NCBI GenBank assembly: GCA_016285515.1 | Contig: JAEEQW010000006.1 | Location: 78-64,077, forward strand | From: Bacteroidales bacterium | GTDB taxonomy: Bacteria; Bacteroidota; Bacteroidia; Bacteroidales; BM520 | Length of the DNA: 64,000 nucleotides | Reading direction: 5' to 3' | Part shown: piece after piece, positions 1 through 58,500 of the stretch | Layout: every line of letters starts with the position of its first letter | Numbering within the stretch: the first letter of the stretch is position 1 | Notes under the pieces: model-generated | What the model was told of the DNA's origin: nothing | Database searches by the model: none | The model's input: only the letters and a program-made list of their open reading frames with translations | Position numbers and translations under genes: made by a program

Positions 1-45
1 CTGCCGCTAGCGTTTATCCTGAGCCAGGATCAAACTCTTCATTGT
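1..45 (-). rRNA. rrs: 16S rRNA gene, extreme 5' end only (the gene runs off the left edge)
   Basis: The reverse complement of nt 1-40 is GAAGAGTTTGATCCTGGCTCAGGATAAACGCTAGCGGCAG. This is the universal 27F site AGAGTTTGATCCTGGCTCAG followed by a Bacteroidota-type GATnAACGCTAGC. The exact mature 5' end is uncertain. Confidence 0.9.
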
Positions 46-270: not shown

Positions 271-278
271 CAAAAGTA
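271..278 (-). promoter_or_regulatory. Candidate Bacteroidetes -7 box (TACTTTTG) for the rRNA operon
   Basis: Plus-strand CAAAAGTA is TACTTTTG on the minus strand and matches TAnnTTTG. It lies about 230 nt upstream of the 16S 5' end. No clear -33 TTTG partner was seen. Confidence 0.3.
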
Positions 279-358: not shown

Positions 359-1852
359 CTATTTATTTGAAAAAATAATGGTAATAATAGCTTGAATATC
401 CAAAATATTTATCACTCCATCACGGTTCACATCGGATTTCCCGATGCTAAAATGCTCAGGTGTTACGCCAATTATATAAGAACAAATCGAAATTATATCA
501 ATAACATCAACCGTACCGTCTTCATTTGCATCACCATAAAGGTAAAATTCATGCACACCTATATCTATTATATCGTCCAAAATTCTCGGATTGCCATAAA
601 AGTCGAATTCAGGAAGATGCAGACCTGTAGTATCCTGTGTTCCTCCATTGATTGCCGGACTTGAAGACTGAAGATGGCAGTCACCATTGGGCAAATCCAC
701 GAACAGCGGATCTTCATCGCTCATTTCTTCATACAACTGAAGAAATTGCTCATTATAAATCTTCTCACGTCCAAATTCAACGATACCATATCTGAACGAA
801 GGATGTGAATAAAGATCCCAGATGCAGATTTGTGAACTGTAAAGCGTATCGCCCGGTTTTTCTCCTGTGCTTTCCCATCGGTTACCCCAGAAAATACAGT
901 TGTTGAATACAGGATAGGCTTCCCCGAAGAACTGGACTCCACCGCCACCGCCGCCCCAACAGGTATTATTTACGACAACGAAGTTGTTTATAATTGGAGA
1001 GGAGATTGCACATGCCATACCTCCTCCATAATGCACGACATGATTGTTACGGAGAATTGCATTCGACATAACCACATTAAGATGACTGCTACGCTGGATC
1101 CCAATACCACCGGCATTTGTTGAATGATTGTTTTCAATCAAAGCTCTGTCAAGCACCACACTGCAACTGTCGAAATTAACGGCGCCGCCATAGCAGTTCG
1201 GACAGTCATTGTCATGAAAGTACATGTCCCTCATCTCAACATCACAATTGATAAAGAACATGCCACCACCATACATGTAAAGACTGACAGCCTCATCATA
1301 TATCCCAAGATTACCGTCAACCTCACAGTCATAAATATTAAAATTGGAATATTCGGCATACAATGCACCACCTTTAAATAATGTCAGATTGGATGTGAAC
1401 CTGCAATGTCCAATGGTGACATCTTCAACATTGGAAAACCTGACAGCACCGCCAAAATAAGGGTCCTCAATCATTTTGCCGTAGCTGAAATCGCAATATT
1501 CGAGCACAATAGGCCCGGTACACTCCGAAAAGGTGATGCCAGCCCATCCACCATCGAAACGATGTATATCATGAAAGTTAGTAGTATCTGTCACCGTAAA
1601 GACGATGTGGTTATATTCTGTTCCAACAGCAGACAAATCACCGCCTACGATTATCTTGAAATAACCGTCGAAAATCACCTTGGCTCCTTCAACTATAGTC
1701 AGCGACATACCTTTAGGTACAGTGACATCATCGACCACTAAAACTGTATCCGCATCCCATATACCTGACTGTTCTTCCGAAACTTCAATGGTCCGGGCGG
1801 AAATCACAATTGATAATAAGAATAATAACAGAAACGATAAAACTTTTTTCAT
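359..1852 (-). CDS. Secreted right-handed beta-helix (PbH1-repeat) protein with a C-terminal type-I dockerin
   Basis: The 497-aa ORF has an N-terminal signal peptide (MKKVLSFLLLFLLSIVISA). Its body has Gly/Asn-rich repeats typical of parallel beta-helix proteins (GGALYAE, GGGMFF, YGGAVNF, AGGIGI, YGGGMAC, WGGGGGGV). The C-terminus is a duplicated Ca-binding dockerin. Confidence 0.8.
   Translation of the reverse strand: MKKVLSFLLLFLLSIVISARTIEVSEEQSGIWDADTVLVVDDVTVPKGMSLTIVEGAKVIFDGYFKIIVGGDLSAVGTEYNHIVFTVTDTTNFHDIHRFDGGWAGITFSECTGPIVLEYCDFSYGKMIEDPYFGGAVRFSNVEDVTIGHCRFTSNLTLFKGGALYAEYSNFNIYDCEVDGNLGIYDEAVSLYMYGGGMFFINCDVEMRDMYFHDNDCPNCYGGAVNFDSCSVVLDRALIENNHSTNAGGIGIQRSSHLNVVMSNAILRNNHVVHYGGGMACAISSPIINNFVVVNNTCWGGGGGGVQFFGEAYPVFNNCIFWGNRWESTGEKPGDTLYSSQICIWDLYSHPSFRYGIVEFGREKIYNEQFLQLYEEMSDEDPLFVDLPNGDCHLQSSSPAINGGTQDTTGLHLPEFDFYGNPRILDDIIDIGVHEFYLYGDANEDGTVDVIDIISICSYIIGVTPEHFSIGKSDVNRDGVINILDIQAIITIIFSNK
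362..538 (-). other. Dockerin module (two F-hand-like Ca-binding segments)
   Basis: The sequence is YGDANEDGTVDVIDIISICSYIIG...SDVNRDGVINILDIQAIITIIF. It contains two DxNxDGxxxxxD loops, each followed by a helix, at the very C-terminus of the protein. Confidence 0.8.
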
Positions 1853-1857
1853 AGCCC

Positions 1858-2676
1858 TTATTTGTTTTTAATATATGTGTTTTTAAAAGAAGACACCTTT
1901 CCCACAGCAGATTTCAGAATATCATATTCATTGGTCGATTTTCTGATGCTTCCAGCATTTTTCTGAAAATAATTGACAAAGTCAACGAATTCATCCTCTG
2001 TCAGTCCATAATCATTGGTCATGACGTTTTTGAAGTCGGCAGAACGGATGTAATTATAAAAGGTTTCGGTACCTTTTTCAATTCTCTCAAGTTCTTCGAT
2101 TTTCTTTTCGGATTTGTTTTCATTGGAATTGAAAAGACCGCTGATAAAGCCTTTAATAGTAATACCCATTCCGAAATAGTCGAGTCCCTGGTTGTATGTT
2201 TCACGTTTCCATACAAGGTCCACATTGTCATCAAGTTTCACTTTCGGAATTTCCTGCGTACCCTTTTCAACACCTTGAACATCAACCTTCTCCTTTTTTT
2301 CCACAGGAAGAATAACAACAGACTGGGTAAGAGGAACCACGACTTCATGGAGGACATACACAACAGGTTTCAACTCAAATACCAGGACTTTATCGTAATA
2401 CTGACCGCAGGAAGCCACGTAAATGTCGCTTTTCCCATAATTTACTGATGAAAGATGAATTGTATCATTATCAGAAACATACAGTTCAAAATAACCGTTG
2501 AAATCCGAGACATCGGCATGATGTGAAGTGCTGTAAGCATGAACATCCCTTATTGGGTATCCGGTTTCAGAATCCTTCAGAATTCCACGGAAAACCTTAT
2601 AGTCCTGTGACCATAACATCATGGGCGCAAATAAAATAAAAAAGAATAATATCTTCTTATTCAGCAGCGTCATCAT
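1858..2676 (-). CDS. Carboxypeptidase-regulatory-like domain protein (function unknown)
   Basis: The 272-aa ORF has a signal peptide. A CarboxypepD_reg-like motif follows (FRGILKDSETGYPIRDVHAY...DFNGYFELYV). It overlaps the upstream gene by 20 nt, which suggests an operon. Confidence 0.65.
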   Translation of the reverse strand: MMTLLNKKILFFFILFAPMMLWSQDYKVFRGILKDSETGYPIRDVHAYSTSHHADVSDFNGYFELYVSDNDTIHLSSVNYGKSDIYVASCGQYYDKVLVFELKPVVYVLHEVVVPLTQSVVILPVEKKEKVDVQGVEKGTQEIPKVKLDDNVDLVWKRETYNQGLDYFGMGITIKGFISGLFNSNENKSEKKIEELERIEKGTETFYNYIRSADFKNVMTNDYGLTEDEFVDFVNYFQKNAGSIRKSTNEYDILKSAVGKVSSFKNTYIKNK

Positions 2677-3922
2677 CCACTAATTTATGAGCATAAATAT
2701 TGCCGTTTCTCAGAATCTCATCCTCATTTTCTACCTTTCTGTTTTCCATTAGCACCTTGCCGTTGCATATCACAGTATCGACATCGTTGCCATTGCCCGA
2801 ATAAACAATGTTGGAAATGAGATTGTAATTAGGTGTGAATGCGGGGGTATGCAAATCAAACAGCACAATATCAGCGAGATAACCTTCCTTGATGTCTCCA
2901 AGCTGCTTGTTCAGAATTATGCCACCGTTATGAGTTGCACACTTGAACATGTCAACCGCACTGCAGGCGGTAGGATCATCACGCCAGGCCTTTCCGATGA
3001 AAGACGCGACCTTCATAGTCTCAGTCATATCAAGGTTGTTTGAGGAGCTTACGCCATCAGTCCCCAAACCTACGGTAAGTCCCTTATCCTTCATCTCATG
3101 ATATTTGAAATGGTATCCTGATGCAAGTTTCAAATTGGAATTCGGATTATGGACTATCTTAACATCATTGTCAGCAAGCATCTGCATTTCCTCATCGTCA
3201 AGCCACAGACAATGGGCTATAATAAGACGAGGTGACAGAAGTCCGATTCTGTTGAGATATCTGACAGGCGTAACACCGTATTGTTTTTTGCAATTATCGC
3301 ATTCAAGGGGCGTTTCAGCCAAATGCATGTGAACAAGCAAGTCGTTGGCTTTGGAAAAATCCCTCAACCATTCAAGGATACGTGTTGAAACCGTATAGAC
3401 AGCATGGGGTGCAAGTGTGAAAGTTGTCAATTCCGTATTCTGATATTTGTTGAATGAACTTTCCACTTCATGGACTGTTTCATTGAAAGTCTTTGTGTGG
3501 TCGGAATCGAGGATGACTTTGCCCTGAAAGGAGCGAATACCCATTTCTTCAGCTGCTTCCCTACCGGCTGAGAGATTCCAATACATATCGTTGAAACAAG
3601 TCGTGCCGGTCTTTATCATCTCAAGACAGGCAAGTTTCATGGCATGATAGACTATTTCGCTGGTCAGCTTGGCTTCGTAAGGCCAAATCTTGTCTGACAG
3701 CCACGGTTCAAGTTCCATATCATCACCAAAACCTCTGAAAACTGTCATTGCAGCATGGGTGTGACAATTGACAAATCCTGGAACGGCGGCTTTTTCAGTA
3801 CCGTCTATAACTTTGTCAGCAACAACATTGATATTGGGAGCAATGGTTTTAATCTTATTGCCTTCAATCAGTATATCAGTTATATTATTGTACAATAATA
3901 CATTTTTGATAAGTATGCTCAT
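2657..3922 (-). CDS. mtaD: Amidohydrolase, 5'-methylthioadenosine/S-adenosylhomocysteine deaminase-like
   Basis: The 421-aa ORF has the metal-binding motif PGFVNCHTHAAMTVFRGFGDDMELEPWL, which is typical of MtaD/chlorohydrolase-type amidohydrolases. HMHLAET and a late GTDG motif are also present. Confidence 0.75.
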   Translation of the reverse strand: MSILIKNVLLYNNITDILIEGNKIKTIAPNINVVADKVIDGTEKAAVPGFVNCHTHAAMTVFRGFGDDMELEPWLSDKIWPYEAKLTSEIVYHAMKLACLEMIKTGTTCFNDMYWNLSAGREAAEEMGIRSFQGKVILDSDHTKTFNETVHEVESSFNKYQNTELTTFTLAPHAVYTVSTRILEWLRDFSKANDLLVHMHLAETPLECDNCKKQYGVTPVRYLNRIGLLSPRLIIAHCLWLDDEEMQMLADNDVKIVHNPNSNLKLASGYHFKYHEMKDKGLTVGLGTDGVSSSNNLDMTETMKVASFIGKAWRDDPTACSAVDMFKCATHNGGIILNKQLGDIKEGYLADIVLFDLHTPAFTPNYNLISNIVYSGNGNDVDTVICNGKVLMENRKVENEDEILRNGNIYAHKLVDDDAAE

Positions 3923-3925
3923 CTC

Positions 3926-6397
3926 TTAATATTTTACAGACAATTTTATATTAATAGCCCTACGAGTCAGATAATCAGGCACTCCACATTGATATCCTCT
4001 GATATCCGTCACCCATGTATATGAAATGGTATTGTATTTGTCAAGAACGTTCAGCACTTCGACTGTCAGCGACATGTCGCTTAATGCATCGAGGAAAGTG
4101 TGTGTTTTAACCTTATCGCTGACTATCTGCCAAGAAAGGCCGAGGTCGGCACGAAGATAGGAAGGATAACGGCGGGTATAGGACGATGAGAAAGGGCGCT
4201 TGTTTGGCGGCATTGCCGGCAGACCGGTGCCATACGTCAGATTAAGCTGCATTTTTATGTGAGGATAATTGGGGACGTAATCCTGCAAAAACAATGAAAA
4301 CATAAACCGCTGGTCAGTAGGACGCGGATAATAGTCACTGATGACATTTCCGACACTGTCGATTTGGCGTTCCATGGTTTTCATAAGTGAAACGCTGACC
4401 CAGGAATCGACTCCCTTTACCATTTCACCGGTTAATTTAACATCGATGCCGGTCGCATAACCTTCGGCAAGCATGTCGGGGTAATATTGAATCAGCACAT
4501 TATCAACAGTATATGGAATCAAATCATCCAAAAGCTTATAGTATGCTTCTGTTACAAACTTGAACGGGCGGTTCCAGATTCTGAGATTCCAATCGCATCC
4601 GGCGACAAAATGGATGGACTTCTGCGATTTAATATCGGTATGCAGGACACCATTTTCGTCTCGCATTTCACGATAGGAAGGCTGTTGGAAATAATAACCC
4701 GTTGAAAATCTGAAAAGCACATCCTTGCTCCATTTCTTCGGAATCAAAGAAAAAGTCAGACGCGGACTTACATCAAACTCCTTATTGACACTCAAATACG
4801 AAAATCTCAGTCCGTATGTAAGATTCATGTTGACCGAAGGAAGTTCAAACGACCACATATCCTGAGCGTATGCAGATGCCCTATGACAGTTAAGTGTGTT
4901 CTTCGCATTGGCTGAAGAATACATTGACAAAATGAATTCCGGCTGTTGTGAAGGGTCAGTAAAACCTATTGAGTCCGGTGTCGTTGGAATAGTATATCCC
5001 GCAGAATCAACGAGTTCCCATTCGCTCAGCACATCATAGACCGACTCATGACGATACTGGGCGCCAAAAGACAGATTATGATTACCATAAACAGTTGAAT
5101 ATTTGGCGTCTGCAGTATAGAATTGTGACTTATATCTATTGCGCGCATGTGACAGGAACGTACCGACACCCATGCTCTCGACCACATTGCCATAATCATC
5201 GGAACCCATATTGTTGTCGAGTTTCCCTATCCAATATTCACTCAACACATCATAATACTCGCTTTCAATGCTCTTATATCCCGAAAAAGTAAGACTTATA
5301 TTACTGATTTTCTGTGGCTTGTATAATAACGACAATGCCGCCATGCCATTTCTGAAGACATCGTTTTCATTACCTTCCATATACATATACATCCTGTACG
5401 ATTCCATAAGTGAACCAAAAGTGGTTTCTCTTGACTGCGGAACATAACTGTATTTGTTGCCGGAATAATTTCCGAGAAGGGAAATTTCCAATTTAGGGGA
5501 AACCGAATATGTCAGCAAAGTCTGAAAATCAGTGTAAGTCGGGTTATAATCACCTTTGGTATCCATAGTATTAATCAGATAAGCATTTGATTTATAACGG
5601 AATCCCACAAGATAGGTGAAGTTATCCAATTTATCTTCCACATGAATGGAGGAAGCCAGCAGACCTAAGGATAGAGAAGCGTGAAATTCGGTTGGTTTAC
5701 GATAGGTGATATCCAGTACTGACGACATCTTGTCGCCATATTTAGGTTCAAAACCGCCGGCAGAAAATGATATCGACGATACCAAGTCGGAATTGACGAA
5801 GCTCAATCCCTCCTGTTGTCCGGAGCGTGTAAGAAACGGCTTGAAGATTTCGATACCATTGACATATATGATGTTCTCGTCGAAATTACCGCCTCTGACA
5901 GAATACTGTGAACTCAGCTCATTGACGGATGAAACGCCGGGCAAAGTTTTTATCACCGCACCGATATCATTTGACGCATTTGGTATCATTAAGGCAGCCT
6001 TGGCATTAATGCGGTCGAACGTGGTGTTTCGGATGGTTTCGTCTTCAATGACAATAGTTTCCAGGTCTTGTGAAGAAACGACCATGTGAATATCGAATTT
6101 CCTTGATTCGCCGGGTTTCAATTTCACATTGATATAAGCGTTTTTATATCCGATGAAGGAAGCGACCACCTGAATGGTGGTGTCTGCGGGCAGTGACAGT
6201 TCATAATAGCCTTTTTCGTCAGTTGTAGTGCCCGTTGTACCATTTTCCACACACACCACATTGACAAGCTGAAGCGGTTTGCCATTGTCGGTAACCCTGC
6301 CGTAGATTGTGCCTTGTTGGGCCTGGAGACGGCAACACAAAAACAGGCACAGGAAAATCAAAGTGCAGAATATGCTATTTTTCAATCCATTCATCAT
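3926..6397 (-). CDS. TonB-dependent receptor-like outer-membrane protein with an N-terminal CarboxypepD_reg domain
   Basis: The 823-aa ORF has a signal peptide followed by QGTIYGRVTDNGKPL...DEKGYYEL. A plug-like region and a long beta-strand-rich barrel region follow. Confidence 0.75.
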   Translation of the reverse strand: MMNGLKNSIFCTLIFLCLFLCCRLQAQQGTIYGRVTDNGKPLQLVNVVCVENGTTGTTTDEKGYYELSLPADTTIQVVASFIGYKNAYINVKLKPGESRKFDIHMVVSSQDLETIVIEDETIRNTTFDRINAKAALMIPNASNDIGAVIKTLPGVSSVNELSSQYSVRGGNFDENIIYVNGIEIFKPFLTRSGQQEGLSFVNSDLVSSISFSAGGFEPKYGDKMSSVLDITYRKPTEFHASLSLGLLASSIHVEDKLDNFTYLVGFRYKSNAYLINTMDTKGDYNPTYTDFQTLLTYSVSPKLEISLLGNYSGNKYSYVPQSRETTFGSLMESYRMYMYMEGNENDVFRNGMAALSLLYKPQKISNISLTFSGYKSIESEYYDVLSEYWIGKLDNNMGSDDYGNVVESMGVGTFLSHARNRYKSQFYTADAKYSTVYGNHNLSFGAQYRHESVYDVLSEWELVDSAGYTIPTTPDSIGFTDPSQQPEFILSMYSSANAKNTLNCHRASAYAQDMWSFELPSVNMNLTYGLRFSYLSVNKEFDVSPRLTFSLIPKKWSKDVLFRFSTGYYFQQPSYREMRDENGVLHTDIKSQKSIHFVAGCDWNLRIWNRPFKFVTEAYYKLLDDLIPYTVDNVLIQYYPDMLAEGYATGIDVKLTGEMVKGVDSWVSVSLMKTMERQIDSVGNVISDYYPRPTDQRFMFSLFLQDYVPNYPHIKMQLNLTYGTGLPAMPPNKRPFSSSYTRRYPSYLRADLGLSWQIVSDKVKTHTFLDALSDMSLTVEVLNVLDKYNTISYTWVTDIRGYQCGVPDYLTRRAINIKLSVKY

Positions 6398-7121
6398 AGT
6401 CCCATCTTTGGATGTCCTTCTTCTTCTGTTCTTTCAAAGCCTTCTGCTCATCCTTGTCAACTTTGAAAGCGCCCGACTTCCATGCTTTGAAAAACTGCAT
6501 CCAGGCAAAGACATTCAACAAAGGATTGGTTGGAACAGAGCCCATCTTATAATATTTGTCGGTCTGTTGGTTTATGTAATACTTGTAATTGGCAGACCCG
6601 TCATTGGCATACAACTTATAAGCCGAACTCAGTCCCGCTTTTTCAAGATTCTTCAGTCCTATTGTTATGTCATCGTCAGGAATATCCATGTGAACAAAGG
6701 CATCAGCGAACTCTTCCTTCGAAGGCCACGGATAGATAACGGTTTCTTCGAGGAAAATAGTATCTCTAAACATCAATTGAAAAAGAGAATATCTGTCATT
6801 CCTTATTGTATCTGGAATCACATAAGTTGCAGGCTTAAAGCCAACGGACGTGAAATCAACAGTATCACCGCGTTGGGCAACAAAAGAAAAGAAACCGCCA
6901 AGGTCGGATATGGTACCGTACTTATATCCCGTCCGGCTGTTAGTCAGAATAATTGTCGCAAACGGAACAGCATTCAGACTGTCAGCCATTACCACGATTC
7001 CGGAAAACTGTATGAATGTTGAATCAACCCCCAACACCTTTTGCTGACATGAAGCGATATTTGTGACCGACATCAAAGTCAGAAATAAGGTGCAAAATAT
7101 TAACAGTCTTTTCTTCATCAT
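6375..7121 (-). CDS. Carboxypeptidase-like regulatory domain protein
   Basis: The 248-aa ORF has a signal peptide and then FSGIVVMADSLNAVPFATIILTNSRTGY..DLGGFFSF. It overlaps the downstream receptor gene by 23 nt. Confidence 0.6.
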   Translation of the reverse strand: MMKKRLLIFCTLFLTLMSVTNIASCQQKVLGVDSTFIQFSGIVVMADSLNAVPFATIILTNSRTGYKYGTISDLGGFFSFVAQRGDTVDFTSVGFKPATYVIPDTIRNDRYSLFQLMFRDTIFLEETVIYPWPSKEEFADAFVHMDIPDDDITIGLKNLEKAGLSSAYKLYANDGSANYKYYINQQTDKYYKMGSVPTNPLLNVFAWMQFFKAWKSGAFKVDKDEQKALKEQKKKDIQRWDYDEWIEK

Positions 7122-7202
7122 ATAAAAGGATAGAAATTACAAAAGTACAAAAAAATCCTCTAAAGCAGAGATTTTTTACTACTTTTGCAAAATTTTTGAT
7201 AA

Positions 7203-8615
7203 ATGAAAGAAGAAAAGATGAACTCTTTGCAGCAGAAGTTTGCAAAAAGTAAAGAAGAAGTTAATGAAGATTCCGCTAGTGATAGCCGAAACCATGAAGA
7301 AAGACGTGAACATTCACGCAGAAATGACACCATTTTGTCATCAGACGATTTCTCGATAGAGGAAAATGGTATTGAATACAAGCCAAAACGCAGATTCAAT
7401 AAAGAATACAGCCACACAAGACGCGACAAGCATTCGCGCCATTACAATAATGAAGAGCGTGAAGACAGACCACGCAGATATAACGATGATGAACGTTCTC
7501 GCAGATACCGCGATGATGATGACAACTACGGGCGTCCCCGCAGATATCATGATGATGATGAGCACAACGGCCGCAGGTCATTCTACAGCAGAAACGACAA
7601 TGAAAACCGTGAAGACAGCGATAACAGATACGGTCGCCGCTCCCGATACAACCATGATGAAAATGATGATGAACGCGGTAGAAGATTCAATAACCGTCAC
7701 CAGCGCAATAATCGCAATGAACACGAAGGGGAACGTAACGAAAACCGCAAAAGCAGATACAACGATCGCAGCAGCAGACCAAGACGTGACGGCGAAGACT
7801 TTAGAAACCGCCCTCAGCGTTTCAGCAGCGCACGCAAATACATCCATGATGATTCATCAGATGCCGAAAAGTTAAGCTATGGTCCAAAGGTAGCCAGAGA
7901 AGATGACGGTATGATACGTCTCAACAAATACATCTCTGATTCCGGCTACTGCTCAAGAAGAGAAGCCGATGACTTGATTTCATCAGGAAGCGTCAAAGTT
8001 AACGGCAAAGTGGTAGATGTTCTTGGCACCAAAATAAACAGGACCGACAAAGTGCAAATCGGCAATGAGACACTGCACAGCGAAAAGCTGAAATATCTGC
8101 TCCTCAACAAGCCAAAGGGTTATATAACCACAATGGATGACCCGCAAAAGCGCAATACTGTCCTGCAGCTTATCGATGACGCATGCAGGGAAAGACTATT
8201 CCCGGTAGGCCGTCTTGACAGAAAAACATCAGGACTGCTGCTCTTCACCAATGACGGGGAACTCGCCAATAAGCTTATGCATCCAAAAGGCAACATCTCC
8301 AAAGTATATCATGTCGTTCTCGACAAGTCTCTCACAAGAGCCGACTTAGAAACAATAGCAAACGGTATCGAACTTGAAGACGGCTACATAAAGGTTGACT
8401 CCATAGCATACGCTGACCCCAACGACAAAAAAGAAATAGGTGTTGAAATCCATTCGGGACGCAACCACATCGTGAGAAGAATCTTCGAATCTTTGGGCTA
8501 CACTGTGGTTAAACTTGACAGGACACTATATGCTGGTCTGACAAAAAAAGACCTCCCACGGGGTTCTTGGAGATTTCTAACCCAGCAGGAAGTCAATTTT
8601 CTGAAAATGTTATAA
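7203..8615 (+). CDS. rluB: 23S rRNA pseudouridine synthase, RsuA/RluB family, with a long charged N-terminal extension
   Basis: An S4 domain is present (IRLNKYISDSGYCSRREADDLISSGSVKVNGK). The catalytic motif is GRLDRKTSGLLLFTNDG. A TACTTTTG -7 box lies at 7180-7187. Confidence 0.85.
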   Translation: MKEEKMNSLQQKFAKSKEEVNEDSASDSRNHEERREHSRRNDTILSSDDFSIEENGIEYKPKRRFNKEYSHTRRDKHSRHYNNEEREDRPRRYNDDERSRRYRDDDDNYGRPRRYHDDDEHNGRRSFYSRNDNENREDSDNRYGRRSRYNHDENDDERGRRFNNRHQRNNRNEHEGERNENRKSRYNDRSSRPRRDGEDFRNRPQRFSSARKYIHDDSSDAEKLSYGPKVAREDDGMIRLNKYISDSGYCSRREADDLISSGSVKVNGKVVDVLGTKINRTDKVQIGNETLHSEKLKYLLLNKPKGYITTMDDPQKRNTVLQLIDDACRERLFPVGRLDRKTSGLLLFTNDGELANKLMHPKGNISKVYHVVLDKSLTRADLETIANGIELEDGYIKVDSIAYADPNDKKEIGVEIHSGRNHIVRRIFESLGYTVVKLDRTLYAGLTKKDLPRGSWRFLTQQEVNFLKML

Positions 8616-25803: not shown

Positions 25804-26910
25804 TCATTGAAATATCAGATTGACAGTCGCCACAATGTCAAGTATGTTTATAATGCCGTCATTGTTAACATCGGCATTTGTGAATTCAATGGATTCAATA
25901 TCCGACATCATAAAAGATATTATACACTGAATATCATTAACATCGACTTTCATGTCTCCGTTTGCATCACCAGGCATTTCAGACGAATGACGGAACAGTC
26001 TATCCCTGTAGGCGAAAATACTTCCGTTGGACGATTGGAAAAGTCTGCTGATATTTATATCATATTCCATTCCGGAATTTATGTATTCCCACGTTTCTCC
26101 GTTATCAGATAAACGGTACACGCCAAACGGAGCAATATCCTTAAAGAATGTATTGTCAAAGGCGCCATATATATCATCTTCAGCGGTTATCATTATATCT
26201 ATAAATATTCCAGGATACTGAGACACAATAACCTGCCACGACTGTCCGTTGTCATCGGATTTATACACTCCCTCAGATGATGAAAGAAAGATGACTCCCT
26301 GGGAATTACTTGCCGCACCTGTACCGTAAAAATAAATTTTGTTCAGACTCGTCGGCTCCCACGTCATACCATAATCGTACGACAGAAAGAAACCACCTTC
26401 GCCATTATATGAAAAAGTACACAATATTAACATGCCATTGACCTCATAAATTTTATAAGCATAGCCCGAAACCGGCACATTTAAATTCGTCCACGTATCA
26501 CCGTAATCATGTGATATGTGTATTCCATACCAGTCAAGTCTTCCCACAATTATTACGCTGTCATTTGCATACAGGATCCCTTTATTAACCGGTATCTGTA
26601 TGGTGTCCCAGATTAAAGCATCATCAGACGAATACAGCAGCTGATTCCCATGATTGACGTATATCACATCATTATCATCTATGTAAACATTTCCACAGGA
26701 CACTGACATTCCTGTCAGATTCCATTCGTTTCCATTATTCGTCGATTTGTACAGACCATGATTTGTGGCGGCATACAGATTACCATTGGAAGTTCCGTCA
26801 ATATTGACGAGATTGCAACTGTCCGGCAAGGCGATTTCCGTCCAGAAATTCTGTGACATGGCAAATGATGCTATACTCATCATTATTGCTATCATTGTAA
26901 ACTTTTTCAT
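25804..26910 (-). CDS. BNR/Asp-box beta-propeller protein with a C-terminal dockerin
   Basis: The 368-aa ORF has a signal peptide. It has six Asp-box-like repeats (STNNGNEW, SSDDALIW, SHDYGDTW, SYDYGMTW, SDDNGQSW, SDNGETW). The C-terminus is a duplicated dockerin. Confidence 0.75.
   Translation of the reverse strand: MKKFTMIAIMMSIASFAMSQNFWTEIALPDSCNLVNIDGTSNGNLYAATNHGLYKSTNNGNEWNLTGMSVSCGNVYIDDNDVIYVNHGNQLLYSSDDALIWDTIQIPVNKGILYANDSVIIVGRLDWYGIHISHDYGDTWTNLNVPVSGYAYKIYEVNGMLILCTFSYNGEGGFFLSYDYGMTWEPTSLNKIYFYGTGAASNSQGVIFLSSSEGVYKSDDNGQSWQVIVSQYPGIFIDIMITAEDDIYGAFDNTFFKDIAPFGVYRLSDNGETWEYINSGMEYDINISRLFQSSNGSIFAYRDRLFRHSSEMPGDANGDMKVDVNDIQCIISFMMSDIESIEFTNADVNNDGIINILDIVATVNLIFQ
25807..25971 (-). 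other. Dockerin module
   Basis: The sequence is GDANGDMKVDVNDIQCIISFMMS...ADVNNDGIINILDIVATVNLIFQ. Its second segment is nearly identical in pattern to the dockerin at 362-538 (DVNRDGVINILDIQAIITIIF). Confidence 0.8.
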
Positions 26911-49540: not shown

Positions 49541-52500
49541 TTATTTACTAACGATAACACGTTTCTGAATAGCGTTACCATCATTGTTAATGATGTTGAA
49601 GATATAAACGCCTGATGACATATCAGAAGTGGAAACTGTTATTGAGTTAGCATCCACGCTTATATTTCTTACAACCTGACCAAGACTGTTGTAGATAGTA
49701 ATACTGTTCATGTTTTCACATTCAATAGTTACATCACCAGCAGTTGGGTTAGGATAAACATTAACACTGATGTTGAAATCATCAATACCTGTTTCTACAG
49801 CTACGTTAACTGTGCTTGGCAGTGATTCTGAACCATCAGGGCAAACTTCAGTAACTGTGTAGGAATAAGTACCGGAAGGAATGTTTACATAATCAACATA
49901 GGTTGTACCAGCATATTGTGAAGCGATAAGTTCACCTTGTCTGTAGATGTTATAAACCTGACCATCGATGAAGTCAAGAGGTTTATCCCATGTAAGGGTT
50001 ACATTTGGCTGACCACCAGCATTATCGTATACGGCTCTGAGGTTCTCAACTGGGAATCCGCCGCAAGCGAATGAACCGCTGAATGGGTTGGAGAGATTAG
50101 ATTCAACTCCATCGAAGCATACAACTGAGATATTGTAAACATAATCATCGTAAGAATTGATACCACTATCAACGTAAGTAGGTTGATCAACAGAAGCGAT
50201 CTTCACATTGTTCCTGTAAACATTGTATGTAAATGTACCATTTGTAGGAGCTGTCCAGTATAATGTCACTGTACCATCATTAAAGTTGAAAGCACCATAG
50301 AGGTCTGTAACAGCTGGGCATTCAGGAGCAACGGAGCTCTGGCAATCTGATGCTGAGTAGTAAGCGTAACCATACTGAGCCTTTACACAGTATTCATAGA
50401 TACCGTAATCAGGAGTGTCAGTATAAGTCAGGACTTCAGCAGCAACTGTTGCAACAACTTCGCTGTTTCTTGTGATGACGTAACCTGTCAAATCACCATA
50501 CTTGTCATTAGGAGCACCCCAAGTCATCACAATGTCACCACCATTAGGTACAGCTGTGAAATTCTTAGGAGCGTTAAGAGAAATCTGGAATTCTTCATTT
50601 GCAGGGATTGAAGAGCCTTGAGCATAATTAACTACAACAGTAATTGTCTGAAGGGCAACTTCATCTACTGAGCCGAAGAACTGAGGATCAACAACTGTTA
50701 CAGGATTATCAACAACGCCTGATACTGTGTAAGAAACTGCACCTGGCATTGCTGGCCATGTAGCTAAGAATGACAAGTTTTCATTGTCAACTGAGATATA
50801 AGTTACAGGCGGGAAGATTTCAGCAACAGTGATTGACTTGCAGACTGGTTGTGATACTACATAATTGTTATTTGATGCAAGATAAGAAACTGTAATACAA
50901 TAGTTATAAGTTGTATTGCCATTTTCTATATAATCAGTGTATGTAGTCTCGTTAATATTATAAATGTCAGCGAGATAAGCACCGTTTCTTGTAATTGTGT
51001 AGTAAACGAAGTCATTGTATGTATCAAGAGGAGCATTCCATGTAAGAGTTAATTCTTCGAAATTCTGACTTACATTCAAGTTAGAAATTTCATTAACGTC
51101 ATTAATGAATGTGCTTGAAGTACGATCTGAAGTACCGTATTCGTAAATAGCCTCAACTGAAACAGTGTGAACATCTTCGGTAGCAAGTTTGCAGATATAG
51201 CTCATATCTGATGTCATTCCTACCTTAACATTATCAATGTAAACATTGTAGTATTCAACTGCCAAAGGATAAGCAACCTGCCATGAAACGTCAGCTGTCA
51301 TGTTGACAACGATAGGTTGGTTAAGAATTACAGCTGGGAACATAGCACCCTGTTCGATAGTGATTGGGTGGCAGATTTCATCTGTAGAAACGATACCCTG
51401 AGGACCGTACTCTATAGTGATACAATATGTATATGCGCCAGGAACTGTAAGATAGTCAGTGAATGTGGTGTCATTGATATTATAGATATCGATAGGTGAT
51501 GAACCACCGGTAATATGATATCTGTAGAAGTCATTGAATCTGTCACTTGGACATGGATCCCAAGTTAATTCAACAATATTAAGAGATGGATTAGATACTC
51601 TGAAGTTGTGAATTTCATTGACTTCGATATCAACGTAATCTGTAACAAAATCTGACATACCGTTTGCATAAACTGCAGCTACACCGATTATATAAGTATC
51701 TTCTTCAACGAACTTGATAGTTGCGGTAGTTTCTGTAGTGTTGAGTGTAATGTAAGAATTATTACCCTGAACAGCAGATACGATATAGTATAATGGGTCT
51801 GAACCTGCGGTTGGTACCCAAGTTACAACAGCTGTCAAGTTTTCATGGTCAATATCCATTGAAACTACAGGATACAAACCATCTTCAACGAAGTGAGCTG
51901 TAAATACGCGGTCGTTTGTGATATAGAATGAATATTGAGTGCCGAAAGCAACTACGTTACCGTTTTCATCGGTCCAACTTACGAATTCATAACCGTCATT
52001 AACTGTTGCTGTTAATGTTACAAATTCATTTAAGAGATATGTACCGGCACCAGCTACTGTACCACCTTCTACAGGATCAACGTTTATAGTTACAGTGTGG
52101 TATTCGATAGCGAAGTGAGCTGTAAATGTACGGTCGCTTGTAATATTGAATGAATATTGAGCACCGGAAGCAACTACGTTGCCAGCTTCATCTGTCCAGT
52201 TCACAAATTGGTAATCACCGTTAGGAGTTGCTGTCAATGTTACTAATTCATCTAAGAGATATGTACCAGCACCGGTTACTGTACCACCGTCTGCAGGATC
52301 AACATTCAAAGTTACTGTGTAGTACTCGATAGCGAAGTGAGCTGTAAATGTGCGGTCGCTTGTAATATAGAATGAATATTGAGGACCGAAAGCAACTACG
52401 TTGCCAGCTTCATCTGTCCAGTTCACAAATTGGTAATCACCGTTAGGAGTTGCTGTTAATGTTACCATGTCATTGTAAATATATGTACCAGCACCGGTTA

Positions 52501-55500
52501 CTGTACCACCGTCTGCAGGGTCAACAGTTACAGTTACAGTGTAAGAGTCCATAGCGAAGTGAGCAACAAGAGTTCTGTTTACGGTTGCTATGAATGTGTA
52601 AGTGTCATCAGTTGAAATTTCAGCACCATTTTCTGTCCAGTTAATGAAGTAATATCCAGGGAATGGGTAAGCTATCAAATTAACTGTAGAACCTACGATG
52701 TAAGAACCAGCACCTGAAACAACACCATATTCTTCAGGATCAGCTGAAGCTGTGATAGTGATTGATTCAATGCTGAACTGAGCCATCAACCAAACGTTAT
52801 CATTAACAGTGAAAGAATAAGTTGCATCAGAAGAGATAAGAGCACCAGCTGAATACCAACCATCGAATGAGTAGTTTTCAGCAGGAACAGCTGTCAGGGT
52901 TGCAACGTCACCGCAATTGTAAGGGTTGGAAACACCTGTAATAGTACCGCCCTCTGTTGGGTTGACCCAAGCAGTGACTGTATATGAAGCCTGAGTGAAG
53001 TGTGCAAAAATGGTTATGTCTTCTGCAGCAATGAATGAGTAAGGATTATCGTAACTGAGGATATTACCGTTAGCATCAGCCCAATATTCAAAGGTATAGC
53101 AATCATCTGCAATTGCAAAAAGCTGAACCATATCACCAACATGGTAGAGGCCACCGCCTATAACGATACCGCCTGTTGAATAAGTGGAAACTTCAATGTT
53201 AACCGTTGTTACAGTGAAATTAGCATTTAATACACAATCTTCAACAACTGTGAATGAGAAGGAGTTATCACCTGAAACTATATTACCTTCGTTATTTGTC
53301 CAATAATTGAAAGTATAGCCATCATTTGCAGTAGCTGTAACGGTTGCTATGTCATGCTGTGTATAAACACCACCGCCAGTTACTGTACCAGCTTCTGCTG
53401 GGATAGCATTTACTATAACTGTATATTCTGCTAATTCATCAACTGTGATGAGGCCAGGGAATGGAGCGTATGAATAAAGGATATTACCAACCATACCACT
53501 CAAAACACTGTTTGTGATTGGGAGGAGATAGTAACCTTCTTCTGGAGCTGTTACACCAAATGTGCAAATCACACCGTTTTCACCTGAAATTGCTGTAGGA
53601 GGAATTGAATATCCGAGAATTCTCAGAACATTGTTATCGATAACGCTGGCAACAATATAGAAGTTGCTGTTTGTTCTGTCTGTAACTACAGCTGAACCGT
53701 CAACGTATGTCAGTTCACCGAGTTCGATATCGAACTGGAATCCATAAACATCATCAACAGGATTATTCAAGCTTACTGGAACTGTAATTTCTTCAGTTGC
53801 ATAGCCGAACAGGTTCTGAGGAATTGACAGAGTGTTTACTGATGAGAAGTAAGCTACCAAATCACGGTCTTCTGTAGCTGTGAATGACAATACTGGAGAC
53901 TCTGAAATGGAAATGTTGTTTTCCATCCAGTACATGAATGCATAACCCATAGCAGGAGTTGCTATGAGTGTAACCACGTCACCATAGCTATAAACACCGC
54001 CACCCAATACTGAGCCACCATCAACAGGATCAGCAGCTACTGTAATTGTAACGTCCAGTACGAAGTTAGCGATTAAAGTACGGCTCTCAACTACAACGAA
54101 TGTGTAAGAATTATCTAAACTGATTACATTGTCAAAATCATCTGTCCAATTTACAAATGTGTAACCTTCAGCAGCAGTAGCTGTCAAAGTAACGATATCA
54201 CCAGTCTCATAAACACCGGCACCGGTAATAGTACCACCTTCAGCAGGATTTGCGATTGCATTAATAACATATTCCTGCATTGCACCTACGATAACGAGAC
54301 CTGACAGAGGAGCGTATGAATAAAGGATATTACCTGCTTCATCACTCAAAACGTCATTTGTGATTGGGAGGAGGTAATTACCTTCTGCAGATGGCATTAC
54401 ATCAAATGTGCAGATGTCACCATAAGTTCCTGAAACAGGTGTTGGAGGAATTGAATATCCGAGAACTCTCAGGACATTGCCATCGATAACGGTAGCAACA
54501 ATATAGAAGTTGCTGCTTGTTCTGTCTGCAACTGTAGCTGATCCTTCAACGTATGTCAGATCACCGAGTTCGATATCGAACTGGAAGCCGTAAACATTAT
54601 CGATAGGATTATCGAGATATACAGGGACTGTTACAGGTTTGTCAACATAACCGATGAGGTTGGTTGGTATTGACAAAGTATTTATTGATGAGAAATAAGC
54701 AACTAAATTGAGGTCTTCGACAGCTGTGAATGACCAGAAAGCATCTGTTGAAACAATCTCATTGTCCTTCAGCCACCATCTGAATGCATAACCTTCAGCT
54801 GGGATAGCATTGACAATAACTTCGCTGCCGTATGGATAAACGCCACCGCCTGTTACTGTACCACCTTCTGTAGGATTTGCAGTAACTGTGATGTTGACTG
54901 ATGAGAAATTAGCAACAAATGAATGGTTTGCAGTAGCAACAAATGTCCATGAAGCATCTGTTGTTATTTCTGCACCGTTTTCTGTCCAGTTAATGAATGC
55001 GTAACCTTCAGCAGGGAATGCTGTCATTGTAACAGCAGCACCAATTGCGTAAACGCCAGCACCGGTTACAGTACCACCTTCAGCAGGATTTGCAACAGCT
55101 TCAACAGTAACACCGGAAATAGTGAGAGTACCATCAACTGTAGTAACGTTGTAGAGACCACCATCTACGTTTGACAGAACTGCACCATCAAGTGTCAAAG
55201 GATATACTCCGTTTTCGGCAGCCTGGAACTGGATTAAGCAGACAGGACCGTCAACACCGTCAATTTGTGCTGGTGGAATAGAATAGTCAAGAACTCTCAG
55301 AACATTGTCACTAATAGGCATTGCCATGATAATATGTGAATCGGAAAGTCTGTATGTCTTTTCAATTCCAACATAAGTCAATCCCTCAGGAATAGTTACA
55401 TCAAACTGGAAGCCGTAAACAACATCATTTGTGTTGTGCAAGTTTATTGGAACGTCTGTTACAACACCAGGAAGACCTGTTACACTTTCAACACTGATAA

Positions 55501-58500
55501 CATTGTTATTGGCGAAGTTTGCAACAAGATTTCTGTCAGAAACCAAAGTGAATGAATAAGTCTTATCTGCTGAAACTTCAACTCCGTTTTCTGTCCAATT
55601 TACGAATGTGTAATCATTTTCATCAAAAGAAACTGCAGTCAGAGTAACAACATCACCGTAGTAATAAGGATTGTCAAGACCCATAACCAAGCCATGACCT
55701 TCTGGATTTACTGTTACATTCACATAATAAGTATTGTGTAAGAAGTAAGCGACGAGGTCGCGGTCTTCAGTAGCAGTGAATTCATACAGTGCGTTTCTTG
55801 AAACTATATTTCCATCTTCTATCCAGCAGACGAATGAATAACCGATTTCAGGAGAAGCGCTAACTGCGACTGTTGCGCCGTAGATATATGCGCCACCACC
55901 TGTTACTGTACCGCCTTCTTCAGGGATAGCTGAAACTGTAATGTTAATCTGAGAAACAGAAAGTGTTCCATCTACGGTTGTCACATGGTACAAACTGCCA
56001 TCGATACCTGAAATAGCTGCTGTTGTTGCATCAATGTTCATTGGATAATCACCTGTCTCTGCTGCAACAACTTGAATAGTACAAATAGGACCTTCAGTTC
56101 CGAAAATTGCCTCTGGAGGCATTGCATAATCAAGGATTCTGATTACATTGCTCTTTCCATCAATAGGCATTCCCATGATGACGTGTGCTTCGGAAAGTCT
56201 GTCTGACTTTTCTACACCAACAAAAGTAAGACCATCAGGAAGAGTTATATCAAACTGGAAGCCATAAACAACATCATTATGATTAGTCAAATCAACAGGA
56301 ATATTGACTACAGTGTTTGGAAGAGCTTCCACATCTTCAACTACGAGGTAGTTATTGTAAACGAAGTTTGCAACAAGATTTCTGTCGGATGTTACTGTAA
56401 ATGAATAAGTTTCATCTTTTGAAACGATTACGCCATCTTCTGTCCATGAAATAAATGCATAATCATCGGAAGGTACTATTGCAGTCAAAGTGGCAACATC
56501 ACCATAATGATATGGATTGTCAACACCGCTGATTGTACCGAAACCTTCAGGATTTACATTTGCAGTGATATAATAATCAATGAGTTCGAAGTTAGCAACG
56601 AGGTTGCGGTCTACAGTAGCAGTAAATTCATACTGTGCGTTTCCTGTAACTATACTGCCATTTTCTGTCCAGTAGAGGAATGAATAACCGATTGCAGGAT
56701 AAGCGTTAACTACAACTGTTGTGCCATAGATATATGCACCGCCACCTGTTACTGTACCACCTTCTTCAGGAAGAGCAGAAACTGTAATGTTAACCTGAGA
56801 AACAGAAAGTGTTCCGTTTACGGTTGTCAAATGGAACAGACTGCCATCGATACCTGAAATAGCTGCTGTTGTTGCATCAACGTTCATTGGATAATCACCT
56901 GTCTCTGTTGCAACAACTTGAATAGTACAAATAGCACCTTCAGTTCCTGAAATAGCCTCTGGAGGCATTGCATAATCAAGGATTCTGATTACATTGCCAG
57001 CAATAGGCATTGCCATGAGGATGTGTGATTCGGAAAGTCTGTCTGACTTTTCTACACCAACAAAAGTAAGACCGTCAGGAATAGTTATATCAAACTGGAA
57101 GCCATAGACGACATCATTATGATTAATCAAATTAACAGGAATATCGACTAAAACGTTTGGAAGAGATTCAACATCTTCAACTACGAGGAAGTTATTGTAA
57201 ACGAAGTTAGCAACAATAACCATGTCGGATGTTACTGTAAATGAATAAGTCTCATCTTGTGAAACAACCACTCCATTTTCAGTCCATGCATCAAATGCGT
57301 ATTCATCGGAAGCTGGTGTTGCAGTCAAAGTGGCAACATCACCATAATGATAAGGATTGTCAACGCCGCTGATTGTACCGAAACCATCAGGATTTACAAT
57401 TGCAGTGATATAATAATCAACGAGTTCGAAGCAAGCAACAAAGCTGCGGTCGAGACCTGCTGCAAATATGTAAGGATTGTCGGTATATTCAGTCTCTCCT
57501 TCTTTCCAATATAAGAAAGCATAGCCTATATTAGGAGTAGCAGTAAGAGTAACTGTTTCACCTATATAATATACACCGTTGCCTGTGAAAGTACCACCGT
57601 CAATAGGATCAGCTGTCACGAAGATATTGACATCTTCGATAGTCAGAAGACCGTCAACAGTTTCGCTATAAAGTACATTACCCATCATGTCGGTTAAAAC
57701 TTCATTCTGAATAGCAAGGGTGAAAGTGCCTTCAACAGGAGCTGTGACATCAAATGTACAGATTGCACCGTCAGTGCCTGCCAATGGAACAGGTGGCATT
57801 GAATAGTCGATGACTCTCAGTACGTTGCCTGATATAACTTCTGCTGAAATATGGTGACTGTCATCATCTCTGTCAGTCAGGGCAATAGAGCCATAAACGT
57901 ATGTCATATCACCCAGTGGAATATCGAACTGGAAGCCATAAACCAAATCAACATCATTGTCGAGATCAACATTGATTGTTGCAGGCTGATCCACATGACC
58001 CATTAATGTTGTTGGAATAGACAGGACATTGACACCGATGAAATGAGCCACAAGATTTCTGTTACCTCTGACAGTGAAAGTGTAGATTGCATCGTCGGAA
58101 ACAACCAAACCGTTTTCTGTCCAGTTGGTAAACATATATCCGTCAGCTGGTGTAGCGGTCAGGACTGCTGTTTCAAAGTGATTATATGCACCTTCGCCAG
58201 TCACGACACCACCTTCAGCAGGATTAGCTGTTACACTAATATAATAGGTATTGAGTGACATAACAGCAATCAGTACGCGGTCAGCACCTGCTATGAATGT
58301 ATATTCAGGTGTTGAAGCAACGATAACTCCGTTTTCCAACCAGTCAACAAATGTATAACCCTCGTTAGGTGTTACGGTAACTGTAACTTGTTCTCCTGTG
58401 AAATATACGCCTGTACCGGTAGTAACACCGCCTTCCATAGGAACTGTGACAGCTTCGATATTAACGTCATCGATAGCCAGTTCTCCATCGCGTGTCTCAC

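Follow-up and report, generated by a model that had tools for sequence, protein, structure and literature searches.

Cohesin-dockerin assembly is textbook biology of the Gram-positive cellulosome, and C-terminal tails of type IX secretion systems (T9SS) are the textbook means of surface attachment in Bacteroidota. Both are found in the stretch of DNA analyzed here, a window of 64,000 nucleotides from the genome of an uncultured rumen Bacteroidales bacterium (GenBank assembly GCA_016285515.1, contig JAEEQW010000006.1, positions 78 to 64,077), in which a 497-aa secreted beta-helix protein ends in a dockerin and a 3771-aa scaffold carries cohesin modules and a T9SS tail. For Candidatus Stygibacter (Cloacimonadota), a cellulosome-like complex was described in silico, consisting of a ∼3755-aa non-catalytic scaffold with tandem cohesins, carbohydrate-binding modules (CBM2/CBM3) and a T9SS-type C-terminal domain, and of dockerin proteins with GH18, GH57, S8 and C25 domains (PMC8542988). 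Dockerins were also reported for rumen Bacteroidetes, where they made up 8.8% of the rumen dockerins in one survey, occurred in several bins with 11 each, and were mostly found without cohesins (PMC6487960, PMC6071333).

When the beta-helix protein is compared with its relatives, with the other proteins of its genome and with these systems, it is probable that it belongs to a family of T9SS cargo, has been re-anchored by its dockerin and is held non-covalently on a T9SS-exported surface scaffold, and that the string of five genes in which it lies is a recent juxtaposition. The best-supported result is the swap of the T9SS tail for the dockerin.

The C-terminal module of the beta-helix protein

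The initial annotation had described a secreted beta-helix protein with a textbook duplicated dockerin at its C-terminus, and both parts of this description are borne out, the former by the beta-helix match and the Sec-type signal peptide (Table 1). PF00404 (Dockerin_1) matched aa 439-490 with 37.3 bits (cut-off 22.9), covering profile positions 1-53 of 57, and the same module scored 41.8 bits in a six-frame scan of the genome. Two tandem segments of ∼22 residues could be identified by eye, each consisting of a D-x-[ND]-x-D-G-x5-D loop and a helix. The canonical calcium loop DANEDGTVDVID is followed by the helix IISICSYIIG in the first segment, and the canonical calcium loop DVNRDGVINILD by the helix IQAIITIIF in the second, so that both loops are intact. 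When the whole protein was searched against the sequences of the PDB, dockerin modules were the sole matches, aligned to aa 438-496, and the Clostridium acetobutylicum dockerin 6kg9 aligned residue for residue. The module was also aligned with 28 other dockerins of its own genome and fitted their consensus well.

A search of ∼5.8 billion proteins yielded 267 relatives of the beta-helix protein. Dockerin_1 was confined to the two closest homologue clusters (98% and 67% identity). The remaining homologues are 39-52% identical, have lengths of 509-590 aa and match the query only to aa ∼437, and many of them carry the annotation Por_Secre_tail, which denotes the C-terminal sorting domain of the T9SS. 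The alignment of the homologues is conserved through the motif DIGVHEF (aa ∼436). The choice-of-anchor Q domain (aa 391-436) is the final stretch in common with the T9SS-tailed homologues and lies immediately before the junction; the dockerin begins at aa 439. This class of domain (NF041518) is presumably named for the differing C-terminal sorting signals that follow it. Past aa ∼436, the query and two homologues (P0002 and P0003) continue with a dockerin of ∼60 aa and the others with a YPNP-type tail of ∼95 aa, which is present in 11 more distant homologues of the alignment. Among the homologues listed, the YPNP motif was found in the tail of 107 out of 120. The 497-aa protein itself has the Sec signal peptide of T9SS cargo, as read from its sequence, without a lipobox cysteine in it (by eye), and lacks the C-terminal sorting domain of ∼75-100 aa; no match to PF18962, the type A T9SS C-terminal domain, was obtained with Pfam.

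In a tree calculated from the body alone, the three dockerin forms group as one clade with a Shimodaira-Hasegawa-like approximate likelihood ratio (SH-aLRT) support of 99, with tail-bearing sequences on both sides, and no second copy of the beta-helix body was found in the genome. Judged from alignment and tree, the T9SS tail appears to have been replaced in a small rumen clade by a canonical calcium-binding type I dockerin, exactly at the boundary behind the choice-of-anchor Q domain (aa ∼437), and this replacement appears to have a single origin. The initial annotation had recognized the dockerin, but had missed that it occupies the site of the family's usual T9SS sorting domain.

The function of the body is less sharply defined. 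An AlphaFold model of the 497-aa protein had a mean predicted local distance difference test score (pLDDT) of 69 and was good over aa ∼20-330 and poor past aa 400; the low confidence at the C-terminus is probably due to the input alignment, in which the C-termini are mixed. A Foldseek search with the beta-helix model returned generic right-handed beta-helices only (E ∼1e-4, template modeling (TM) scores 0.15-0.36), including the polysaccharide lyase (PL) family 6 chondroitinase B, rhombotarget A, glycoside hydrolase (GH) family 28, AlgG, NosD and phage tailspikes. Pfam gave no GH28, pectate-lyase or chondroitinase B match in the protein at E <= 0.1. The PL or GH28-like identity that had been suggested for the beta-helix was thus not substantiated: neither a GH28 or PL1/3/6/9 profile nor a specific fold with catalytic residues was obtained, and from the generic matches alone no enzyme class could be assigned. 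Invariant polar residues of the body are H213-D214-N215, D228, Q253-R254 and H274, and some homologues carry a Chlam_PMP repeat annotation. The body may be that of an adhesin-like surface protein or that of an enzyme which acts on glycans and belongs to no known class; these are the two readings left.

Cohesins and dockerins of the genome

The 3771-aa protein encoded ∼50 kb away from the dockerin gene contains seven modules of ∼132 aa built around a VYGFQFD motif. A cohesin call by Pfam had to be given up, as the Cohesin model was silent on this protein, isolated modules included, even at E <= 10. Another protein of the genome carries a cohesin that Pfam does recognize (59.5 bits); aligned with it by hhalign, a profile of the seven modules matched with a probability of 99.8% and an E-value of 1e-28. 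The structure model of module 1 reached a pLDDT of 93.7, and in a Foldseek search of the PDB its best 50 matches were all cohesins, with TM scores of 0.66-0.83. By hhalign, model and Foldseek, the protein that had been named as the scaffoldin is a true multi-cohesin scaffold.

A hidden Markov model (HMM) made from the seven scaffold modules was then used for a cohesin census, in which 24 cohesin modules were identified across six open reading frames (ORFs) of the genome; candidate cognate modules for the dockerin are thus encoded in its own genome. Pfam's cohesin model, alone or summed with its neighbors, reached the cut-off at 4 places compared to these 24 modules; it misses most cohesins of this genome, which is a lesson for annotation. 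Twenty of the 24 modules reside in three large scaffolds with T9SS tails. SprA is present in the genome, together with 69 Por_Secre_tail matches above the family cut-off, and no CBM was found in the scaffolds with Pfam. A clean replacement of the T9SS tail by a dockerin, apparently of single origin, is seen in one protein family, while the scaffolds of the same genome keep their T9SS tails.

Two of the smaller cohesin proteins have features of their own. The 1675-aa protein resembles an adaptor, which could bind a client and plug into another scaffold. The 178-aa lipoprotein has the lipobox LGTTMC followed by an N/Q/S-rich linker and is encoded directly downstream of an 874-aa dockerin protein; this small cohesin ORF recurs in two related genomes (G066:C65 and G071:C241).

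The genome (2.58 Mb, 54 contigs, 98% complete) contains 37 Dockerin_1 matches above the cut-off, of which ∼29 lie at the extreme C-terminus and one is N-terminal, while eight precede ∼190-210 aa that end in a T9SS tail. The dockerin genes are spread over at least 20 contigs. Of the dispersed regulon that the initial annotation had proposed, the dispersal therefore holds; no result bears on shared regulation. Domains were scanned in 25 of the about 37 dockerin proteins. The partner domains comprised three C25 gingipain-like peptidases, a C10 peptidase with a Spi inhibitor propeptide, an M14 carboxypeptidase, a Porphyromonas-type peptidyl-arginine deiminase (PPAD), two Omp28 domains, a BspA-type leucine-rich repeat protein, an alpha/beta hydrolase, a BNR propeller and the beta-helix. 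Many of these proteins fall in classic T9SS cargo families (C25, C10, M14, PPAD), and no glycoside hydrolase domain was found in the 25. The mostly GH, esterase or lyase clients and the CBM-bearing scaffold of a cellulosome are thus not seen here. As far as these domains indicate, the complex would be proteolytic or adhesive and not cellulolytic.

In the eight proteins with an internal dockerin (contigs C2, C20, C25, C39, C47 and C52), a conserved module of ∼110 aa with the consensus ...VYTIENGVLY...AYS.DG...G.YAL.NV...LGI stands between the dockerin and the T9SS tail. The idea that this module is a short cohesin was rejected, as hhalign against the cohesin profile gave a probability of only 2.4% and a profile search of the PDB was empty.

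The nearest relatives of the beta-helix gene are found in ruminant metagenome-assembled genomes, one with 96% identity (Bacteroidales, water buffalo abomasum) and a second with 89%, and the locus is also present in sheep, bovine and other gut metagenomes and metatranscriptomes. Dockerins occur in three of 13 genomes of the family (36, 19 and 24 matches), and scaffold-type cohesins in exactly the same three (24, 8 and 21); the other ten have neither. All three carry the dockerin form of the beta-helix gene, with 89-100% identity. This distribution points to a clade-specific gain of the cohesin-dockerin kit, both halves of which appear to travel together.

The co-occurrence also bears on the question whether the C-terminal module has a partner at all. 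It might be a calcium-binding stabilizing module or an orphan dockerin-like repeat without a cohesin partner, as in many non-cellulosomal proteins. Single dockerin matches are indeed common in Bacteroidales: of 61 sampled genomes of the order, the majority have no match or a single one, and 20 have at least one. Moreover, two dockerin-rich genomes of the sample, with 41 and 15 matches, lack a scaffold-type cohesin. Yet dockerins and cohesins co-occur perfectly within the family (3/3 vs 0/10), and the module of the beta-helix protein has two intact loops, covers positions 1-53 of the 57 in the profile and fits the genome consensus, which makes an orphan repeat hardly credible.

The matches in the two dockerin-rich genomes (G057 and G054, respectively) mostly cover profile positions 8-56; either these genomes use a different cohesin class or their dockerin modules serve another purpose. 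In four unrelated Bacteroidales of the sample (G017:C15, G020:C1, G033:C12 and G049:C87), a single scaffold-type cohesin lies within 1-3 kb of a dockerin-coding stretch of the same contig. This arrangement suggests possible minimal cognate pairs, which could have been the starting point of the expanded system.

The five-gene string and its surroundings

The five minus-strand ORFs that had been claimed for this locus were all found in the ORF list with exactly the proposed coordinates and spacing (Table 1). In the direction of transcription, the first two genes overlap by 23 nt, 3 nt separate the second from the third, the third and fourth overlap by 20 nt, and 5 nt lie between the fourth and the fifth.

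Table 1. Coordinates of the features in the window and of the cohesin proteins on other contigs of the genome.
Feature	Location	Position	Strand	Basis
248-aa secreted CarboxypepD_reg-like protein	window	6375..7121	minus	ORF list; Pfam 28.2 bits, below ∼32 cut-off
823-aa TonB-dependent-receptor-like outer-membrane protein (CarboxypepD_reg, Plug, barrel)	window	3926..6397	minus	Pfam
421-aa cytoplasmic amidohydrolase, TRZ/ATZ, methylthioadenosine/S-adenosylhomocysteine (MTA/SAH) or 5'-deoxyadenosine deaminase type	window	2657..3922	minus	Pfam, NCBIfam
272-aa secreted protein, sub-threshold CarbopepD_reg_2, weak full-length BamP resemblance	window	1858..2676	minus	Pfam, NCBIfam
497-aa secreted beta-helix / choice-of-anchor-Q / dockerin protein	window	359..1852	minus	ORF list, Pfam, NCBIfam, homologues
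Predicted Sec (signal peptidase I) signal peptide, aa 1-19, MKKVLSFLLLFLLSIVISA, putative cleavage before RT	window	1796..1852	minus	translation read by eye, alignment
Right-handed parallel beta-helix body, aa ∼20-390, repeated GGA/GGG...FxxN-type rungs	window	683..1795	minus	PF13229 48.2 bits
Choice-of-anchor Q domain, aa 391-436	window	545..682	minus	NCBIfam NF041518 27 bits vs cut-off 25
Type I dockerin, aa 439-491, calcium loops DANEDGTVDVID and DVNRDGVINILD	window	380..538	minus	PF00404
Bacteroidetes-type -7 motif TACTTTTG, located 19 nt upstream of the ATG of the first gene	window	7140..7147	minus	pattern search
TACTTTTG motif downstream of the dockerin-gene stop, probable -7 box for transcription of the rRNA operon	window	271..278	minus	pattern search
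5' end of 16S rRNA gene, cut by window end	window	1..45	minus	Rfam RF00177 31.5 bits, model positions 1-45
Second dockerin-only client, BNR/sortilin-type propeller and dockerin	window	25804..26910	minus	Dockerin_1 33.9 bits, BNR, Sortilin-Vps10
3771-aa scaffold: seven cohesin modules, 20 InlB-B-type repeats, fn3, T9SS C-terminal domain; candidate docking partner	window	49541..60856	minus	Pfam, modules
2466-aa protein: eight cohesin modules, T9SS tail	contig C25			
1239-aa protein: five cohesin modules, T9SS tail	contig C25			
ORF cut by contig end: at least two cohesin modules	contig C45			
1675-aa protein: one N-terminal cohesin, dockerin, ∼110-aa module, T9SS tail	contig C47	32639-37675	minus	
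178-aa lipoprotein: one cohesin	contig C19	29774-30328	minus	Pfam 29.5 bits; 89 bits with genome-specific HMM

The domain calls for the neighboring genes turned out weaker than had been implied. The 823-aa protein is receptor-like as described, with CarbopepD_reg_2 at 55.8 bits and Plug at 29.5 bits in addition to a barrel (Pfam), but both small proteins named as CarboxypepD_reg proteins remain below the cut-off of ∼32 bits, the 248-aa protein with 28.2 and the 272-aa protein with 17.4 bits (CarbopepD_reg_2 cut-off 32.2). The 272-aa protein also matches BamP over aa 8-268 of its 272 residues, with 34.2 bits against a cut-off of 230 (NCBIfam). BamP is a periplasmic accessory subunit of the Bacteroidota beta-barrel assembly machinery (BAM; PMC12611786). 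Both small proteins of the string match BamP weakly, which hints at a plug- or regulator-type partner for the barrel. PDB sequence searches with the 823-aa barrel and the BamP-like protein gave matches confined to the N-terminal CarboxypepD_reg-type domains. The amidohydrolase has no signal peptide; it matches Amidohydro_1 with 216.9 bits (Pfam) and NCBIfam models with 320-410 bits, which is under their equivalog cut-offs.

As the 5' end of a 16S rRNA gene was identified at the very start of the window, the dockerin gene abuts the start of a co-directional rRNA operon, as had been stated initially; the contig ends 77 nt past the window start. A sigma-70 promoter scan is uninformative for Bacteroidota and the Bacteroidetes -7 motif TAnnTTTG was used in its place. 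On the minus strand between 359 and 7200 it was found only at 7147-7140, upstream of the first gene, and at 3072-3065, inside the amidohydrolase gene. One weak terminator-like site on this strand lies within the string (2350-2337, inside the 272-aa gene), and the total of such sites was 6 compared to 6.0 expected from shuffling. In shared strand, minimal spacing and absence of an internal terminator, the string has the layout of an operon. No terminator-like site was found on the minus strand from 359 to 45, and transcription of the string may therefore read through into the rRNA operon.

Each of the five genes is covered in part by metatranscriptome contigs of low depth, in which DNA carry-over is possible. 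Contigs from six runs span the junction at 6375-6397, contigs from two runs that at 3922-3926, and those of one run that at 2657-2676. Four further runs (X1-X4), labeled 'GENOMIC RNA-Seq', were rejected as RNA, treated as DNA and left out of the operon analysis, as they covered genes, intergenic DNA and a divergent gene evenly at 4-8x. The claimed co-transcription of the five genes is thus plausible, with contigs across three of the four junctions, but not across 1852/1858. The string is probably one transcript.

A common transcript would also be expected if the five genes formed a functional outer-membrane uptake operon, in which a scaffold-bound enzyme feeds its products to the TonB-dependent receptor, as the initial annotation implied. 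The tight packing with overlaps, the conservation of the string in the relatives with 96, 89 and 67% identity and the probable co-transcription of most of the genes would fit such an operon. However, 58 of 61 Bacteroidales genomes carry the barrel gene, in most cases once and regardless of dockerins, and its conserved neighbor is the small partner alone, which was found upstream of it in 9 of 11 other genomes examined. Barrel and 248-aa partner thus appear to be a near-universal, mostly single-copy pair of the Bacteroidales. Among the ORFs of the string, no SusD-like ORF was identified in the ORF list or with Pfam, and the SusC model TIGR04056 matches only the N-terminal domain of the 823-aa protein (aa 30-117, 35 bits vs a cut-off of 368); the SusC barrel with an adjacent SusD lipoprotein that marks a SusC/SusD-type polysaccharide utilization locus is therefore lacking. 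In addition, the string holds a cytoplasmic amidohydrolase, and neither Pfam nor Foldseek detected a CAZy-type catalytic family.

The gene order in relatives points in the same direction. All five genes are found together only in relatives with at least 67% identity (96, 89 and 67%). The amidohydrolase follows the barrel in near relatives only, and across the order the first two genes alone are conserved neighbors, so that the order of the string is not kept across relatives. In a genome of the same genus, the partner, the barrel, a 278-aa ORF and the amidohydrolase are present without the beta-helix gene. The T9SS-tailed homologues of the beta-helix protein (loci L007 and L010) have a different setting, with methylmalonyl-CoA mutase on one side and yfhO, a glycosyltransferase, a CMP-sugar synthetase and NeuB-type nonulosonic-acid genes on the other. 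In the genome studied here, the mutase and yfhO genes are present on different contigs, and it is therefore concluded that the beta-helix gene was relocated and not duplicated; copies of the glycosyltransferase, NeuB and CMP-sugar genes of that cluster were not found in the genome. Neither a conserved five-gene unit nor a link to an outer-membrane uptake module survives this comparison, and an uptake operon is considered very improbable. In terms of gene content and order, the string appears to be a recent, lineage-specific juxtaposition that would imply no functional link to uptake. Tight packing beside a TonB-like gene is, as a second lesson for annotation, not evidence of an uptake operon.

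The conserved setting of the T9SS-tailed homologues is a hint of a function connected with the glycans on the surface of the cell itself. Upstream of the string, the window encodes a divergently transcribed RluB-type pseudouridine synthase (7203-8615, plus strand) with S4 and PseudoU_synth_2 domains (aa ∼239-429) and an N-terminal low-complexity extension of ∼230 aa rich in R, D, E, N and H; in the 67%-identity relative this protein is even longer (530 aa).

Proposed surface display, export and comparison with known systems

In the proposed mechanism, the beta-helix protein would be exported by Sec and cleaved by signal peptidase I, its dockerin would be loaded with calcium, and the protein would then be captured non-covalently by a cohesin of a T9SS-exported, surface-anchored scaffold, as the cohesins, the dockerins and their phyletic pattern suggest. 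In the tail-bearing relatives, the T9SS sortase would instead make a covalent attachment. Should the binding be real, it would form a modular, non-covalent surface display layer on top of the T9SS in a rumen bacterium, with a proteolytic or adhesive rather than a fiber-degrading role.

Several points weigh against the preferred explanation, the common transcript of the string included. The body tree was midpoint-rooted and gave long-branch warnings, the sister relation of the dockerin clade to P0006 has an SH-aLRT of 83 only, and the dockerin region of the structure model has a low pLDDT of 30-40. The genome is a metagenome-style assembly of 54 contigs, though the same pattern recurs in two related genomes. 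Across 1852/1858 there is no bona fide RNA contig, and the RNA contigs are of low depth and may include DNA carry-over. The domain identities, the swap with its single origin, the fold of the cohesins and the phyletic co-occurrence can be read from the data; the binding of the dockerin to a cohesin, the partner cohesin, the surface location and the route across the outer membrane are all inferred. For a dockerin-only protein with neither a T9SS tail nor a lipobox there is no known route across the outer membrane, and a surface scaffold is out of its reach if it remains periplasmic. The candidates that remain are piggyback export on tail-bearing cohesin proteins, periplasmic retention, and release in vesicles or by lysis.

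Retention would mean that the dockerin-only protein stays periplasmic, tethered for example to the 178-aa lipoprotein cohesin, or leaves the cell only in vesicles or by lysis. This would be consistent with a signal peptidase I signal peptide in a protein lacking both T9SS tail and lipobox, and with the gene of a single-cohesin lipoprotein on contig C19, which lies directly downstream of one that encodes another dockerin protein. The residues following the cysteine of this lipoprotein (NSTNVSS...) contain no obvious acidic surface-export signal of the kind known from other Bacteroidota. On the other hand, the 107 homologues with a tail are without exception predicted to be T9SS cargo, secreted or at the surface, the other dockerin proteins (gingipain-like, C10 and M14 peptidases, adhesin-like proteins) belong to groups that act extracellularly in known systems, and the three large T9SS-tailed scaffolds hold 20 of the 24 cohesins. 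Periplasmic retention is therefore judged unlikely.

The dockerin might also serve as an indirect T9SS address. In the periplasm, the protein would bind a cohesin of a tailed adaptor or scaffold, and both would then cross the SprA translocon together as a folded complex. Such a route would account for how ∼29 proteins of typical T9SS cargo families could do without a tail of their own, and tailed cohesin carriers do exist, one of them with cohesin, dockerin and tail. The T9SS moves folded proteins; however, we know of no precedent for hitch-hiking through it, and a 3771-aa scaffold with its clients would be a very large substrate, so that this route is regarded as quite improbable. The broader proposition, that in this clade the dockerin now does the work of the T9SS sorting domain and that dockerin-only proteins cross the outer membrane as passengers on tailed carriers, is rated as clearly unlikely. 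If it were true, it would represent a hitch-hiking mode of type IX secretion, by which covalent surface attachment becomes exchangeable and modular. How a folded, tail-less protein crosses the outer membrane is in any case a testable question, and the answer could reveal carrier-mediated type IX secretion.

With capture of the beta-helix protein on a T9SS-exported scaffold as the preferred reading, the system can be compared with those already described. The likeness to clostridial and ruminococcal type I pairs (PDB 1ohz, 2vn5, 6kgc and 5n5p) lies in the duplicated 22-residue calcium-loop dockerin and in the cohesin jelly-roll, with TM scores up to 0.83. Those hosts, however, are monoderm Firmicutes with S-layer homology (SLH) or sortase anchoring and cellulases, whereas the system studied here belongs to a diderm and has T9SS tails, peptidases and adhesin-like clients. 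Positions 10-11 of the two dockerin segments are hydrophobic in the beta-helix protein (V-I and I-L); in Clostridium thermocellum dockerins they are Ser-Thr. Canonical PF18962 cargo, such as the gingipains of Porphyromonas gingivalis, is represented by 107 of the 120 listed homologues. Unlike such cargo, the tail-less beta-helix protein could not be recognized by the translocon, nor attached by the PorU sortase, in the known way.

The nearest published case is Ca. Stygibacter, which is likewise a diderm of the Fibrobacteres-Chlorobi-Bacteroidetes (FCB) group and shares signal-peptide proteins with C-terminal dockerins, a C25 gingipain-like client and a T9SS-tailed scaffold. It differs in its origin from an Antarctic lake, in CBM2/CBM3 and in its GH18 and GH57 clients, compared to a rumen bacterium with InlB-B-type repeats and no GH in the 25 scanned dockerin proteins. 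Neither the replacement of the tail by a dockerin within one family nor the export problem is reported in that study (PMC8542988). The surveys of rumen Bacteroidetes drew no link to T9SS tails or to such a swap, and cohesins were absent from the Bacteroidetes bins that they list (PMC6487960, PMC6071333). Within an incomplete coverage of the literature, no paper was found in which a dockerin is described as the 'anchor' of a choice-of-anchor protein, or in which a tail is exchanged for a dockerin in one family. What appears to be new here, as far as it can be read from the genomes, is that a dockerin has re-anchored a family of T9SS cargo, inside a cohesin-dockerin system that is specific to the clade and wired to the T9SS.

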